IMG/VR virus record: IMGVR_UViG_2721755725_000014
From: a virus
Taxonomy: Duplodnaviria; Heunggongvirae; Uroviricota; Caudoviricetes
DNA: 39,038 nucleotides
Direction: 5' to 3' (one strand)
Positions within the stretch are counted from its first letter, which is position 1; every line of letters begins with the position of its first letter. Positions 33,001 to 36,000 of this stretch are shown one piece after another. The position numbers were made by a program.

Positions 33001-36000
33001 AATATTTTAAGTTGCAAGTTGGCTATTCGTAGGAATAGAACCTTAGGCATGCTGAATGCGTTTTCTGAACATTGTTTTATAAACTGTGTCTGCTTGCTGT
33101 TGTGATCCTGCTTTTAGTGATGGTGATGATGGATTTCACCAGCAGGATAATGTTGGTACTGACTGATGGCGCTCTGGTCTGCGGCATTGTGGTATTGCTG
33201 TGGCCGATGATGAAAGAACAGAATGAATAATTCTTGACTTTTTTGTTTACTGTTTATTAAAAAATCAACCGCATGGTGAATCCTCCTTGGAGGGGCTAAA
33301 TGATCGAGTTTTAAGGGCACGTAGCGAGTTCTGTTTGATCATTGCAGAACTTAGCGGGAGGCGCCATGCGTACATCACTAGTGTTATTCCTTTTATCATT
33401 TTCCTTGTGAGTTCTGGCTGCGCATTGCGCAGCCTTTTTTTTATGACCTGCCACTGGCAGATGGTCATCCTGTGATTTGATTCCGCTTCCGGCTTTTTAA
33501 CTCTGTTCCTCTACACGGGAGAAATTCGATGTCGATTAAACATTACGATGTTGTCAGGGCGGCGTCGCCGTCAGACCTTGCGGAAAAGCTGACACACAAA
33601 CTGAAAGAGGGCTGGCAGCCATACGGCGGACCGGTTGCCATTACGCCGTACACACTGATGCAGGCGGTGGCTATTGAAGGAGAGCCACAGGTCGGCCCTT
33701 CATCTGAGCCGGATTGGTACTACGTCATCGTACTGGCCGGGCAATCCAATGCCATGGCTTACGGTGAAGGGCTTCCGCTGCCGGATTCATACGATGCTCC
33801 GGATCCGCGCATTAAACAGCTGGCGCGCCGCAGTACAGTGACGCCGGGCGGGGCTGCCTGCAGATATAACGATATTATTCCGGCTGACCACTGTCTGCAT
33901 GATGTGCAGGATATGAGTACGCTGAATCATCCGAGGGCTGACCTGAGCAAAGGGCAGTACGGCTGTGTCGGCCAGGGTTTACATATTGCCAAAAAACTGC
34001 TCCCGTATATCCCGAATAACGCGGGGATCCTGCTGGTACCATGCTGTCGTGGTGGTTCGGCATTTACCCAGGGCGCGGAGGGGACATTCAGCGAGTCCAC
34101 GGGGGCCAGTCAGGATTCGGCACGCTGGGGGGTGGGCAAGCCGTTATATCAGGATCTGATTTCCCGCACAAAAGCGGCATTGCAGAAAAATCCCAAAAAC
34201 GTTCTGCTGGCCGTCTGCTGGATGCAGGGTGAGTTTGACATGAGCGCCGCCACCCACGTACAGCAACCTGCGCTGTTTACAGCCATGCTGACACAGTTTC
34301 GTGCTGACCTCTCCGTGTTTAACGCGCAGTGCCATGGTGGCAGTGCTGCAGATGTGCCGTGGGTTTGTGGTGACACGACGTATTACTGGAAAAATACATA
34401 CGCTACCCAGTACGACACCGTGTACGGCGGGTATAAAAACAGGGAGAGTGAGGGCGTTTATTTTGTGCCCTTCATGACAGACGGTAACGGCGTCAATACC
34501 GCCACTAACGCGCCGGCAGAAGATCCGGATATTCCGGCATCAGGATATTACGGTGCGGCATCGAGAACGAATGGAAACCAGGTATCATCAAACCGCCCGA
34601 CACATTTCAGTTCATGGGCGCGCAGGAGCATTATTCCGGATCGTCTGGCAACCGCTATTCTGAACGCAGCCGGGCGCACCTCAGCCTTCATCAGTGGTAA
34701 GGCACCGGAAATCAAACCCTCGCCCGGCGGCAACACGCCATCGGGTCCGTCTGCAGATACGTCCGTTCGCACAATCTCCCTGCTGCCGGCAGCCGGAGAG
34801 GCTGCTGCGCAGGGCTGGAGCATTAAGGATGGCGGAATTCAGTTGTCAGATGGTGTATTTAAGATCACCAAGCAGAGCAATAAAACCTGGTCCCTGACGC
34901 ATCCGGTGGATGACGCAATTACCCTGCTGACACAGGGCGGCAGACAGACCTGTAAGTTCCGCCTGTCAGGCGCACTGACCAACAATCAGTTCGGGCTGGG
35001 GATTTATCTGTATACGGATGCTCCCGTTCCTGATGGTGTGGCGATGACGGGTACCGGTAATCCGTTCCTGATGTCGTACTTCACTCAGACCACTGACGGC
35101 AGAGTGAATCTGATGCATCACAGGAAAGCCGGAAACACGAAGCTGGGGGAGTTCGGCGATTACGGTAACGACTGGCAGACGCTGGAGCTGGTGTTCACCG
35201 CCGGCAGTGCCACGGTTACTCCGAAACTGAATGGAGTGGCTGGCCCGGCATTCCAGGTTATAAAAGACAGTCTGACACTGGGACTGAATGCGCTGACGCT
35301 GACGGATGTTACAAAAAATGCAGCGTATGGCGTTGAGATAGAAAGTCTGATGCTGGAGATAAATGCACCGGCAGCATAATAAAAAAAGCCAGCGACTGAC
35401 CTGAAAAAGAAGACGCTGGCTAAAAGGCCTTATATGTTTGTAGAGACTTATTTTTCACAGACAGCAATGATGCCTGTCAATATATTATCAATATGCGGAT
35501 TGTTTCAGTTACAGATGCCTTATTAAGGAAAAAAACAGCCAGCACTGACTTTCGGTGGAGAGGTGCTGGCTCAAAAGGATAGATGTACTTCACATGTTGC
35601 TTCTATATGGCAGTACATTTTCTGACAGACAGTGACGGATGTTGTCAAGATATTGTGTCATTTATAACCTGAATCAGGGGAGGCCGGAATGTTATCTGGC
35701 ATTTTTAGCAGAGCCTGAATGCCATAATCACGGCTCCCGGCGTTGGCCGTCAGTGGGTGACACTGGCGGCTTTTTTGTTTTTCTTTACTTTCATTTTCTG
35801 TCGGCGGTGACGGAGACATACATCAGATGGAAAAAATCACAACAGGTGTGTCATACACCACGTCAGCGGTGGGGACGGGATACTGGTTACTGCAGCTGCT
35901 GGACAAAGTCTCTCCGTCCCAGTGGGTGGCAATAGGTGTGCTGGGAAGTCTGCTGTTTGGCCTGCTGACGTATCTGACAAATCTTTATTTCAAGATTAAA

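Follow-up and report, generated by a model that had tools for sequence, protein, structure and literature searches.

Introduction

The closest described counterpart of the element studied here is PasD2 of EPEC E2348/69, a 172-nt RNA whose ends were observed by RNA-seq and Northern blotting (Pearl Mizrahi et al. 2021, PMC8550237), the published start being derived from RNA-seq coverage and band size only. RIL-seq experiments in EPEC found PasD2 on Hfq in ligation products with many mRNAs, of which spr/mepS, perC, coaE, uspA, eaeA, and cesF were the largest partners (PMC8550237). A seed, UGUGAG, was proposed (Fig. S5 and Table S7 of that study), MEME support for a complementary motif in the targets was weak (E-values of 2.4e3 and 6.5), and RNA-seq of an hfq deletion strain showed no significant drop of pasD1 or pasD2 (PMC8550237). 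Homology of PasD with another small RNA, STnc100, was also concluded by Zhu, Shabalina and Storz (2026), who report that in phage 2B8 pasD immediately precedes the esterase; a promoter is nowhere mentioned in the 2026 Pas preprint.

Copies of STnc100 are abundant in cultures of EDL933 without induction. In Northern blots, STnc100-type relatives measured about 235/247 nt, compared with about 177 nt expected from the equivalent start (Tree et al. 2014). StxS of Stx2 phages has likewise been described as a regulatory small RNA (Sy et al. 2020).

Here, we analyze a 39,038-nt stretch of DNA from a tailed phage (IMG/VR record IMGVR_UViG_2721755725_000014), referred to below as the window. A preliminary description, made from the sequence alone, had pointed to a promoter-like hexamer and a strong terminator ahead of nanS-p and had suggested that they might be an original late-promoter leader, displaced from a Q stub by inserted cargo.

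Results

Identification of pasD2 upstream of nanS-p

Direct reading confirmed the hexamer TTGACT at 33234-33239 and the terminator at 33416-33442, which consists of GGCTGCGC-ATT-GCGCAGCC followed by T8. The features of the unit are the following:

33234-33239, plus strand: TTGACT, -35 hexamer of the putative pasD2 promoter (positions -37 to -32; direct reading)
33257-33263, plus strand: TTAAAAA, weak -10 element of pasD2, 7-8 nt 5' of the RNA start
33271-33442, plus strand: pasD2 small RNA gene, 172 nt (identity to the E2348/69 PP2 locus, published ends, STnc100 covariance match)
33271-33369, plus strand: structured 5' domain with closing helix GCAUGGUG/CGCCAUGC, family-invariant motif CAUGGUGAAUCC, and internal hairpin AGUUCUG/CAGAACU
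33370-33415, plus strand: U-rich, single-stranded tail that contains the proposed seed UGUGAG (33405-33410), in extended form CCUUGUGAGU (33403-33412)
33416-33442, plus strand: Rho-independent terminator with a perfect GC-rich 8-bp stem GGCUGCGC/GCGCAGCC, loop AUU, and U8

This element is almost certainly pasD2, the Hfq-associated regulatory RNA gene of 172 bases known from prophages of pathogenic E. coli, and is as such already known rather than new. Positions 33194-33480 are identical, base for base, to the pasD2 locus in PP2 of EPEC E2348/69, and the larger region 28887-36540 is 99.65% identical to that genome. The published PasD2 coordinates (NC_011601, 741157-741328, 172 nt) convert with an offset of 707886 to 33271-33442, in agreement with the expectation of a separate RNA, some 170-180 nt long, that starts near 33270 and ends at a terminator. 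The hexamer and terminator bracket this RNA exactly and proved to be a real unit, and the -35/-10 geometry is kept in relatives. The likeness to PasD2 of E2348/69 extends over the whole gene, its flanks, terminator, and seed without a single sequence difference, whereas PasD1 differs from the RNA of the window by four substitutions and a 1-nt indel (172/173-nt RNA). The expression data are those of E2348/69, which has the identical sequence.

The 3' part of the RNA agrees with data on Hfq binding. The RIL-seq 3' ends of PasD2 (741328/741329) correspond to 33442/33443, the end of the U8 tract, and the Hfq-CRAC peak of the EHEC homologue EcOnc13 (Sakai Sp3; Tree et al. 2014) maps to about 33377-33427, that is, to the tail and terminator. 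A stem-loop with poly-U is present, with the seed just upstream, as in PasD. The terminator is strong (-15.9 kcal/mol, z = -4.5, equalled in none of 200 shuffles). The 5' domain folds with a predicted minimum free energy of -58 kcal/mol (z = -3.07), and its internal hairpin shows compensatory changes across 13 relatives; in the predicted centroid fold, the tail at 33370-33415 is mostly unpaired.

The gene context is also that of PasD. Q and LpxR lie within 10 kb and the esterase directly downstream, the context given in the 2026 preprint being completed by either an esterase or a holin. The neighbours in E2348/69 are alike, with Q, LpxR, a 252-aa membrane protein, and a DUF3927 protein upstream and nanS-p followed by PasA downstream, and phage 2B8 matches the window at 97-98%. 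HnrS (EcOnc10-12), which was included in the comparison, is a different small RNA of 66 nt.

Probable promoter of pasD2 and alternative origins of the RNA

TTGACT alone is no more frequent than chance, with nine occurrences in the window versus 17.9 expected. The -10 element is weak, as had been noted beforehand: it can be read as TTAAAA with a 17-nt spacer or as TAAAAA with an 18-nt spacer, matches the consensus at three to four of six positions, the last not being T, and a consensus-based promoter scan makes no call at 33234-33263. The arrangement TTG-N3-N17-TTA(A/G)AA, however, is found at fixed spacing in all 15 E. coli and Shigella copies of PasD/STnc100, and since the spacer sequences themselves are unrelated, this conservation supports a dedicated sigma-70 promoter. 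Promoters of the STnc100 type combine a weaker -35 (TTGCCT or TTGTCT) with a TGn extended -10, whereas that of PasD has a better -35 and lacks the TG, which amounts to a trade-off between -35 quality and extended -10. We consider it likely that PasD2 is transcribed from its own promoter at 33234-33263.

An alternative, which we regard as unlikely, is that PasD2 derives from a 3'-UTR: transcription would start upstream of the gene for the 252-aa membrane protein and tciB, the end at 33271 would arise by processing, and TTGACT would be incidental. Such an origin would agree with the table of Pearl Mizrahi et al. (PMC8550237), which brackets PasD2 with the upstream gene E2348C_0687 as it does for 3'-UTR-derived RNAs, with a promoter-like TTGTTA-18-TATCAT preceded by an upstream TG at 32223-32252, and with the lack of any predicted terminator between 32130 and 33416. 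Primary 5' ends (TEX/TAP) for PasD, including the end at 33271, were not found in the literature, and the supplements of a Cappable-seq study of EDL933 held no matching sequence. Several observations argue against it. The exact spacing of the boxes is kept behind different genes (stx2B, stx1B, tciB, or Q directly), so that the element travels with the small RNA and not with an upstream operon, and the 5' end of the RNA lies 7-8 nt past the -10. In expression, the base mean of pasD2 is about 11,000, compared with 226 for E2348C_0686 and 37 for E2348C_0687. Finally, a ChIP-exo study in Salmonella LT2 shows in a figure the STnc100 promoter regions with their RpoD/RpoN binding pattern.

Somewhat less probable still is that the unit serves as a leader or attenuator for nanS-p, in which partial read-through would supply lysogens with Q-independent esterase, making the short RNA a by-product. 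The unit does precede nanS-p, at a distance of 86 nt and in the same orientation, in nearly all relatives, and nanS-p (E2348C_0688) has a base mean of about 102 in uninduced EPEC. PasD1 in E2348/69 PP4 and Sakai Sp3, however, precedes a holin gene without nanS-p, which indicates that the unit is not tied to the esterase. Moreover, the terminator is very strong, the RNA has an Hfq interactome of its own, and Rfam scans detect nothing ligand- or signal-responsive. In the nanS-p literature, neither a promoter nor a small RNA was found for the gap before this gene.

That the stretch encodes a small protein is very improbable. The annotations that propose one are a 62-aa "putative membrane protein" in phage 434 (OL657226, a CDS at 33287-33475 in window positions) and a minus-strand ORF, given as CDS or pseudogene, in E2348/69 and Sakai, and ribosome footprints have been recorded on some EDL933 copies of STnc100 (ribosome coverage values up to 3.2). 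The 62-aa frame, however, starts with TTG, crosses the terminator hairpin and the U8 tract, and has no Pfam match. The 1-nt indel in the 97%-identical PasD1 copies alters the entire C-terminal half, the longest open frames vary between relatives, and the minus-strand ORF is flagged as frameshifted in E2348/69 PP2. The hypothetical protein genes annotated over the PasD RNA in phage 434, E2348/69, and Sakai are probably spurious.

Relation to STnc100

Judged by sequence, PasD appears as a restructured and diverged branch of STnc100, sharing the promoter geometry and the 5' motif and differing in the seed and terminator module. A match to the STnc100 covariance model (Rfam RF02076) covers 33241-33445 with 41.4 bits (E = 1.6e-7, model positions 1-206 of 206), below the gathering score of 47 bits and the 81-208 bits of genuine STnc100 copies. 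At the gathering threshold, an Rfam scan of the whole window returned only two ALIL (IS3-family) pseudoknots, and STnc100 became visible in a relaxed scan. Relatives were gathered by a BLAST search of the Rfam consensus against a phage collection.

The slot between a cargo gene (moron) and nanS-p, common to 933W, BP-4795, 1717, JLK-2012, and others, is occupied by STnc100 in hundreds of Stx and lambdoid phages. In addition to this slot, PasD and STnc100 (EcOnc27 in Sakai Sp5; Salmonella and Stx phages) are alike in promoter geometry, closing helix, and internal hairpin. The 5' motif GCAUGGUGAAUCC...GGAGGGGC is invariant and common to both, and CATGGTGAATCC is invariant in 15 of 15 aligned sequences. 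PasD retains the closing helix GCAUGGUG...CACCAUGC of STnc100, with U-G in place of one U-A pair, and also P3 (GUUCAG/CUGAAC type), in which an A-U pair has become U-A by a compensatory change. In contrast, P4 (CCGGG/CCCGG) has been lost through a 7-nt deletion, the loop of the first hairpin is 3 nt shorter, and neither the 3' tail nor the terminator is related. JLK-2012 and Evi stand in between, combining the 5' domain of STnc100 with a terminator of the PasD1 type.

STnc100, found between a moron and either nanS-p or the lysis genes, usually has a convergent AsxR/AgvB gene, which abuts it in 933W, BP-4795, 7888, and PPyecE. PasD has no such partner; no AsxR/AgvB match was obtained in 32900-33600, even at E-values up to 10. 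A search of genome contigs with the 15-base pattern GCATGGTGAATCCNCC gave only chance matches in unrelated phyla.

Organization of the late region

The genes around pasD2 were placed as follows, and no tRNA genes were found in the window:

29720-29809, plus strand: N-terminal stub of a lambda-type Q, 29 codons ("antiterminator-like protein, N-terminal fragment" in the 434 annotation)
29933-30892, minus strand: LpxR, lipid A deacylase gene lpxR
31369-32058, plus strand: complete Q82-type antiterminator gene (PF06323, E = 1.7e-91, profile positions 1-216 of 220)
32042-32132, plus strand: putative pR'-tR' equivalent, TTGCAA-17-TATACT overlapping the Q stop, then a hairpin at 32104-32125 and a T run
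33072-33230, plus strand: DUF3927/TciB-like small membrane protein, 52 aa (Pfam PF13064, E = 3.4e-14)
33529-35379, plus strand: nanS-p, sialate O-acetylesterase (Pfam SASA, DUF1737, DUF6645), outside the small RNA

The short hydrophobic ORF ahead of the promoter does exist, but it is longer than the approximately 33126-33230 given in the preliminary description, running from 33072 to 33230; the phage 434 annotation calls it TciB, that of E2348/69 a DUF3927 protein.

The supposed inserted cargo turned out to hold a complete Q gene with a promoter at its stop codon and a terminator at 32104-32132. The gene is annotated in both 434 and E2348/69, its last 159 nt are 93.7% identical to Q of phage 82, whose record X92588 stops at the Q stop codon, and it is probably the functional Q of this late region. 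The leader terminator is annotated in phage 434, and the leader has a predicted fold of -15.3 kcal/mol (z = -3.6). The true late promoter would be the candidate at 32042-32070, to judge from its position, its consensus match, and the analogy with 933W and PhiR12_1, in which pR' is, respectively, a "putative" annotation and a consensus-scan match.

There is next to no chance that the unit before nanS-p is a relic of a 6S-RNA-type pR'-tR' late leader formerly located after the lambda-type Q, as had been suggested: neither the lambda Q-S intergenic region nor pR'-tR' of 933W is similar to 33200-33460, a complete Q82-type gene adjoins its own promoter and terminator, and 933W and PhiR12_1, with intact Q, each have a pR'-terminator pair right after Q and, further downstream, a separate small RNA unit of this family. 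The suggested alignment, run with blastn at word size 7 on lambda 44510-45185 and on pR'-tR' of 933W, yielded nothing beyond noise, the sole 933W match to the pasD2 stretch being the STnc100 small RNA downstream of stx2B. The RNA is, moreover, abundant without induction and associates with Hfq and trans targets, and TTGACT lies 1176 nt past the Q82-type stop and 3.4 kb past the lambda-Q stub. In favour of a relic are this truncated lambda-type Q upstream and the TTGACT -35 box, which lambda pR' likewise has. The size of the terminated RNA was initially compared to that of lambda 6S RNA; this resemblance, in the -35 box as in the length stated for it, is coincidental.

Possible pairing with lpxR

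A published survey links lpxR to PasD in more than 98% of PasD-bearing prophages, and 71 lpxR::pasD2 RIL-seq chimeras were recorded in EPEC (p = 2e-8; PMC8550237). These results were published separately, and the surveys draw no connection between them. One candidate site was located in the window:

30720-30729, minus strand: candidate PasD target site ACUCACAAGG in the lpxR mRNA, its start 163 nt past the first base (30892) of the start codon

ACUCACAAGG is a perfect 10-nt complement of CCUUGUGAGU in the PasD tail (33403-33412). Tentatively, PasD and lpxR may form a co-inherited regulator-target pair in which the small RNA tunes a neighbouring outer-membrane moron through Hfq.

Discussion

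Our analysis suggests, with a probability of roughly 0.9, that pasD2 is a non-coding "moron", a small-RNA gene complete in itself that sits within the late region of a lambdoid prophage. Transcription in the lysogen would be by host sigma-70 RNA polymerase, initiating at about 33271 from TTGACT-(17/18)-T/TAAAAA and terminating at the GC-rich hairpin and U8. The first 99 nt or so of the transcript would fold stably as a 5' domain, followed by a single-stranded, U-rich tail that carries the seed UGUGAG; tail, hairpin, and U-tract would form a standard Hfq-binding 3' module. PasD2 may then pair in trans with mRNAs containing CUCACA. During lytic growth, Q-modified polymerase from the promoter at about 32042-32077 would pass the PasD2 terminator into nanS-p and the lysis genes.

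The late region is thereby re-read, with the late promoter and leader adjoining the Q82-type gene at about 32042-32132 and the unit before nanS-p being a regulatory RNA expressed in the lysogen. Among the mRNAs recovered with its identical EPEC copy are both virulence mRNAs (per, LEE genes) and core mRNAs (spr/mepS, uspA, coaE). What is added here to the literature is modest, namely the promoter geometry conserved across the PasD/STnc100 family and a testable candidate pairing between PasD and lpxR.

Among known systems, lambda 6S and StxS (Sy et al. 2020) resemble PasD2 as short terminated RNAs encoded among the late genes of lambdoid prophages and made from a constitutive promoter, which in PasD2 is a putative one. 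The PasD2 terminator, like tR' of late leaders, must be overridden by Q-modified polymerase. Unlike late leaders, PasD2 does not adjoin Q and has no sequence similarity to them, and a pR'-tR' candidate distinct from it lies at 32042-32132 in the window. Morons, as Juhala and colleagues reportedly described them in 2000, are autonomous promoter-gene-terminator insertions between phage genes. The site downstream of pR', where pasD2 is located, is a known site of moron insertion (Tree et al. 2014). pasD2 is like the morons in its terminator, its putative own promoter, and its expression in the lysogen, and differs from them in its cargo, which is a non-coding RNA and not a protein.

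Identity of the element with pasD2

On alignment with E. coli E2348/69, every base at the pasD2 locus was the same as in prophage PP2 of this EPEC strain, and window positions 28887-36540 were 99.65% identical to PP2. The sRNA PasD2 was published as a 172-nt plus-strand RNA at NC_011601 741157-741328 (Table S6, Pearl Mizrahi et al. 2021, PMC8550237), which, after subtraction of an offset of 707886, corresponds to 33271-33442, its 5' end lying 7-8 nt past the A-rich -10 region and its 3' end at the final U that follows the terminator hairpin. The terminated transcript predicted in the preliminary description matches these coordinates on identical sequence. 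The element is an already described sRNA gene; the sequence-level observation was correct, and the novelty of the finding is low. Phage 434 matches the region 33000-33540 at 100% identity and phage 2B8 at 98%; many EHEC and EPEC chromosomes carry it unchanged, and among 5426 complete E. coli genomes 697 have a match.

The TTGACT hexamer was read at 33234-33239 and the terminator, GGCTGCGC-ATT-GCGCAGCC followed by eight T, at 33416-33442, upstream of nanS-p (616-codon ORF, start 33529). Fold computation bears out the strength of the terminator (hairpin -15.9 kcal/mol, z = -4.5). The -10 had been called weak, and a generic promoter scan made no call at the TTGACT site because the -10 is poor. 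The hexamer by itself is uninformative, with 9 occurrences in the window where 17.9 would be expected. The short hydrophobic ORF said to precede the element exists, but its extent differs from that proposed. A second hairpin, ATGACCTGCCA / TGGCAGATGGTCAT at 33444-33468, directly follows the U8 tract; it is kept in copies of the close relative PasD1, in JLK-2012 and in Sakai, and neither strand shows a T run there.

Features located in the window
2724-2840, minus strand: ALIL pseudoknot (IS3-family frameshift signal), 121.5 bits, in a 296-aa minus-strand ORF
26161-26277, minus strand: ALIL pseudoknot (IS3-family frameshift signal), 121.5 bits, in a 296-aa minus-strand ORF
29720-29809: lambda-type Q stub of 29 codons (MRLESVAKFHSPKSPMMSDS...), directly upstream of the inverted lpxR moron
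33072-33230: hydrophobic ORF before the element, DUF3927/TciB-type (Pfam) small membrane protein
33287-33475, plus strand: 62-aa 'membrane protein' annotated in phage 434
35529-35613, minus strand: PasA sRNA gene, 85-nt major form, identical to E2348/69 743415-743499

PasA, the second sRNA of the module, is unchanged and has nanS-p on one side and the holin gene on the other; the end of its 236-nt minor form would fall at 35378, and a hairpin resembling a minus-strand terminator occupies 35386-35402. The identical scores of the two ALIL sites, each within a 296-aa ORF, suggest the same insertion sequence present twice, ~23 kb apart, flanking phage structural genes.

Coding potential and the late-leader reading

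Protein-coding annotations cover the pasD2 region, namely the 62-aa ORF of phage 434 and, in E2348/69 and Sakai, minus-strand ORFs, but the region is not likely to code for protein: none of these ORFs has a Pfam match, the plus-strand ORF extends through the terminator, and a 1-nt indel in 97%-identical PasD1 copies rewrites its C-terminal half.

The element had also been read as a relic pR'-tR' leader of the lambda 6S type, displaced from the lambda-type Q stub by inserted cargo. Four results led us to reject this origin. Positions 33200-33460 have no similarity to the lambda Q-S intergenic region or to the 933W pR'-tR' region, the sole 933W match being a gene of the prophage sRNA family STnc100 (Rfam RF02076) downstream of stx2B. 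The stretch between stub and element holds a complete Q82-type gene (PF06323 matched along the full profile; 3' end 93.7% identical to phage 82 Q). This gene has its own putative promoter and terminator: a TTGCAA-17-TATACT match in the scan overlaps its stop codon and is followed by a terminator at 32104-32132, annotated in phage 434 too. In PhiR12_1, TTGACA-18-CATAAT (consensus scan) likewise overlaps the Q stop codon and precedes a terminator, and the STnc100 gene lies ~300 nt further downstream. The transcript was thus rightly predicted, but its evolutionary interpretation was wrong. Phage 933W has the same layout after Q, annotated as putative pR' and possible terminator. Positions 32042-32132 are likely the true late promoter and leader, with a predicted leader RNA of ~56 nt equivalent to StxS/6S. 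The Q stub with a complete Q82-type gene downstream marks a past module replacement.

Probable promoter of pasD2

Upstream regions of 16 PasD/STnc100 copies were compared, with the conserved G in GCAUGG as the anchor. TTG-N3-N17-TTA[A/G]AA occurs in all 15 copies from E. coli and Shigella, the last hexamer ending 6-8 nt 5' of the conserved G, and the 17-nt spacers between the boxes belong to sequence classes that are unrelated to one another. Where the -35 is poorer (TTGCCT, TTGTCT), a TGn extended -10 is present, whereas PasD-type copies, with TTGACT or TTGATT, lack the TG. As read from these alignments, this trade-off is the pattern expected of a selected sigma-70 promoter. Published data on STnc100 fit an own promoter: copies are abundant in uninduced EDL933, and a Salmonella LT2 ChIP-exo study figures STnc100 promoter regions with an RpoD/RpoN binding pattern. 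Our literature search found no TEX/TAP-type data for the promoter, and PasD2 is bracketed with the upstream gene in a table of Pearl Mizrahi et al. 2021 (PMC8550237); a dedicated pasD2 promoter is therefore still something we infer.

Fold, expression and Hfq association

The predicted fold of the 172-nt RNA consists of a 5' domain of 99 nt, an unpaired U-rich tail and the terminator (MFE -58 kcal/mol, z = -3.07). Hfq-dependent sRNAs have a standard 3' module in which a U-rich tail is followed by a GC-rich hairpin and a long U-tract. Within the 5' domain, at 33290-33314, GGAGG is followed after 6 nt by a 4-codon mini-ORF (ATG ATC GAG TTT TAA); the predicted fold has the GGAGG base-paired, and STnc100 copies do not keep the mini-ORF. 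In a lysogen, the pasD2 unit would be expressed without dependence on the phage late programme; after induction, by analogy with lambdoid biology, Q-modified polymerase would have to read through the pasD2 terminator before it could transcribe nanS-p, S, R and Rz.

PasD2 gave a Northern band at the predicted size, high RNA-seq counts (base mean ~11,000, activating conditions) and many Hfq RIL-seq chimeras, with the spr 5'UTR (405), perC (601), coaE (125) and uspA (91), and further with eaeA, cesF and aceE; in these chimeras it is the 3' partner, ending at 741328/9, window 33442/3 (Pearl Mizrahi et al. 2021, PMC8550237). For EcOnc13, the EHEC homologue and a PasD1 variant in Sakai Sp3, an Hfq-CRAC peak and a Northern band of ~187 nt were reported (Tree 2014); the peak maps to ~33377-33427, the U-rich tail and 5' arm of the terminator. 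The 'EcOnc13' Northern probe in that supplement is the reverse complement of ~1472-1506 in the fetched BP-4795 locus (L125), not of PasD; we read this stretch as positions -47 to -13 in the promoter region of a BP-4795-type STnc100. EcOnc27, the STnc100 of Sp5, gave ~235/247 nt against ~177 nt expected (Tree 2014), so that the start of some STnc100 copies may lie further upstream.

Candidate pairing with lpxR

The tail of PasD2 contains UGUGAG (33405-33410), which complements the CUCACA(GG) motif of RIL-seq targets, a motif with weak MEME support (Pearl Mizrahi et al. 2021, PMC8550237). The plus-strand 10-mer CCTTGTGAGT occurs both in the tail (33403-33412) and inside lpxR (30720-30729), and the minus-strand lpxR mRNA is therefore perfectly complementary to the tail over 10 nt. 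Sakai Sp3 and phage 434 have the pair too, and its duplex of -23 kcal/mol is equalled by 3% of shuffled tails. RIL-seq recorded 71 lpxR::pasD2 chimeras (p = 2e-8; Pearl Mizrahi et al. 2021, PMC8550237), and lpxR is published as modestly higher in an hfq deletion strain. PasD-LpxR linkage exceeds 98% in a preprint that leaves the pairing unmentioned (Zhu, Shabalina and Storz 2026), and we found no discussion linking chimeras and complementarity in the literature examined. The candidate pairing is one testable lead, of modest weight.

Relationship between PasD and STnc100

In a relaxed Rfam search, STnc100 aligned full-length to 33241-33445 with 41.4 bits (E 1.6e-7), below the gathering score of 47 bits; STnc100 copies in the fetched loci score 81-208 bits. 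BLAST with the Rfam consensus put the number of phage records with STnc100 at 374, most of them from Stx phages. In every fetched locus the slot has a cargo gene on one side (stx2B, stx1B or tciB; otherwise the Q gene directly) and nanS-p or lysis genes on the other. Phage vB_EcoS-813R8 (L131) carries two copies in tandem orientation (1194-1387 and 1663-1851), ~470 nt apart, differing in their middle sections and 3' modules.

A common ancestor of PasD and STnc100 was concluded independently by Zhu, Shabalina and Storz (2026 preprint), who in phage 2B8 place pasD immediately 5' of the esterase and name Q and LpxR as conserved neighbours; all three neighbours were found in the window. Phages JLK-2012 (L138 1337-1535) and Evi (L133 1215-1420) carry hybrid sRNA genes in which an STnc100-type 5' domain and a PasD1-type terminator are separated by a U-rich tail of a third kind. 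Judging by these hybrids, the family evolves through exchange of 3' seed-and-terminator modules. Unlike STnc100, PasD has a first loop 3 nt shorter, has lost the CCGGG/CCCGG hairpin via a 7-nt deletion, carries an unrelated 3' tail and terminator, and lacks the convergent AsxR/AgvB gene; in the alignments the two share the invariant CATGGTGAATCC motif, the closing helix and an internal hairpin with compensatory changes, A-U becoming U-A in PasD.
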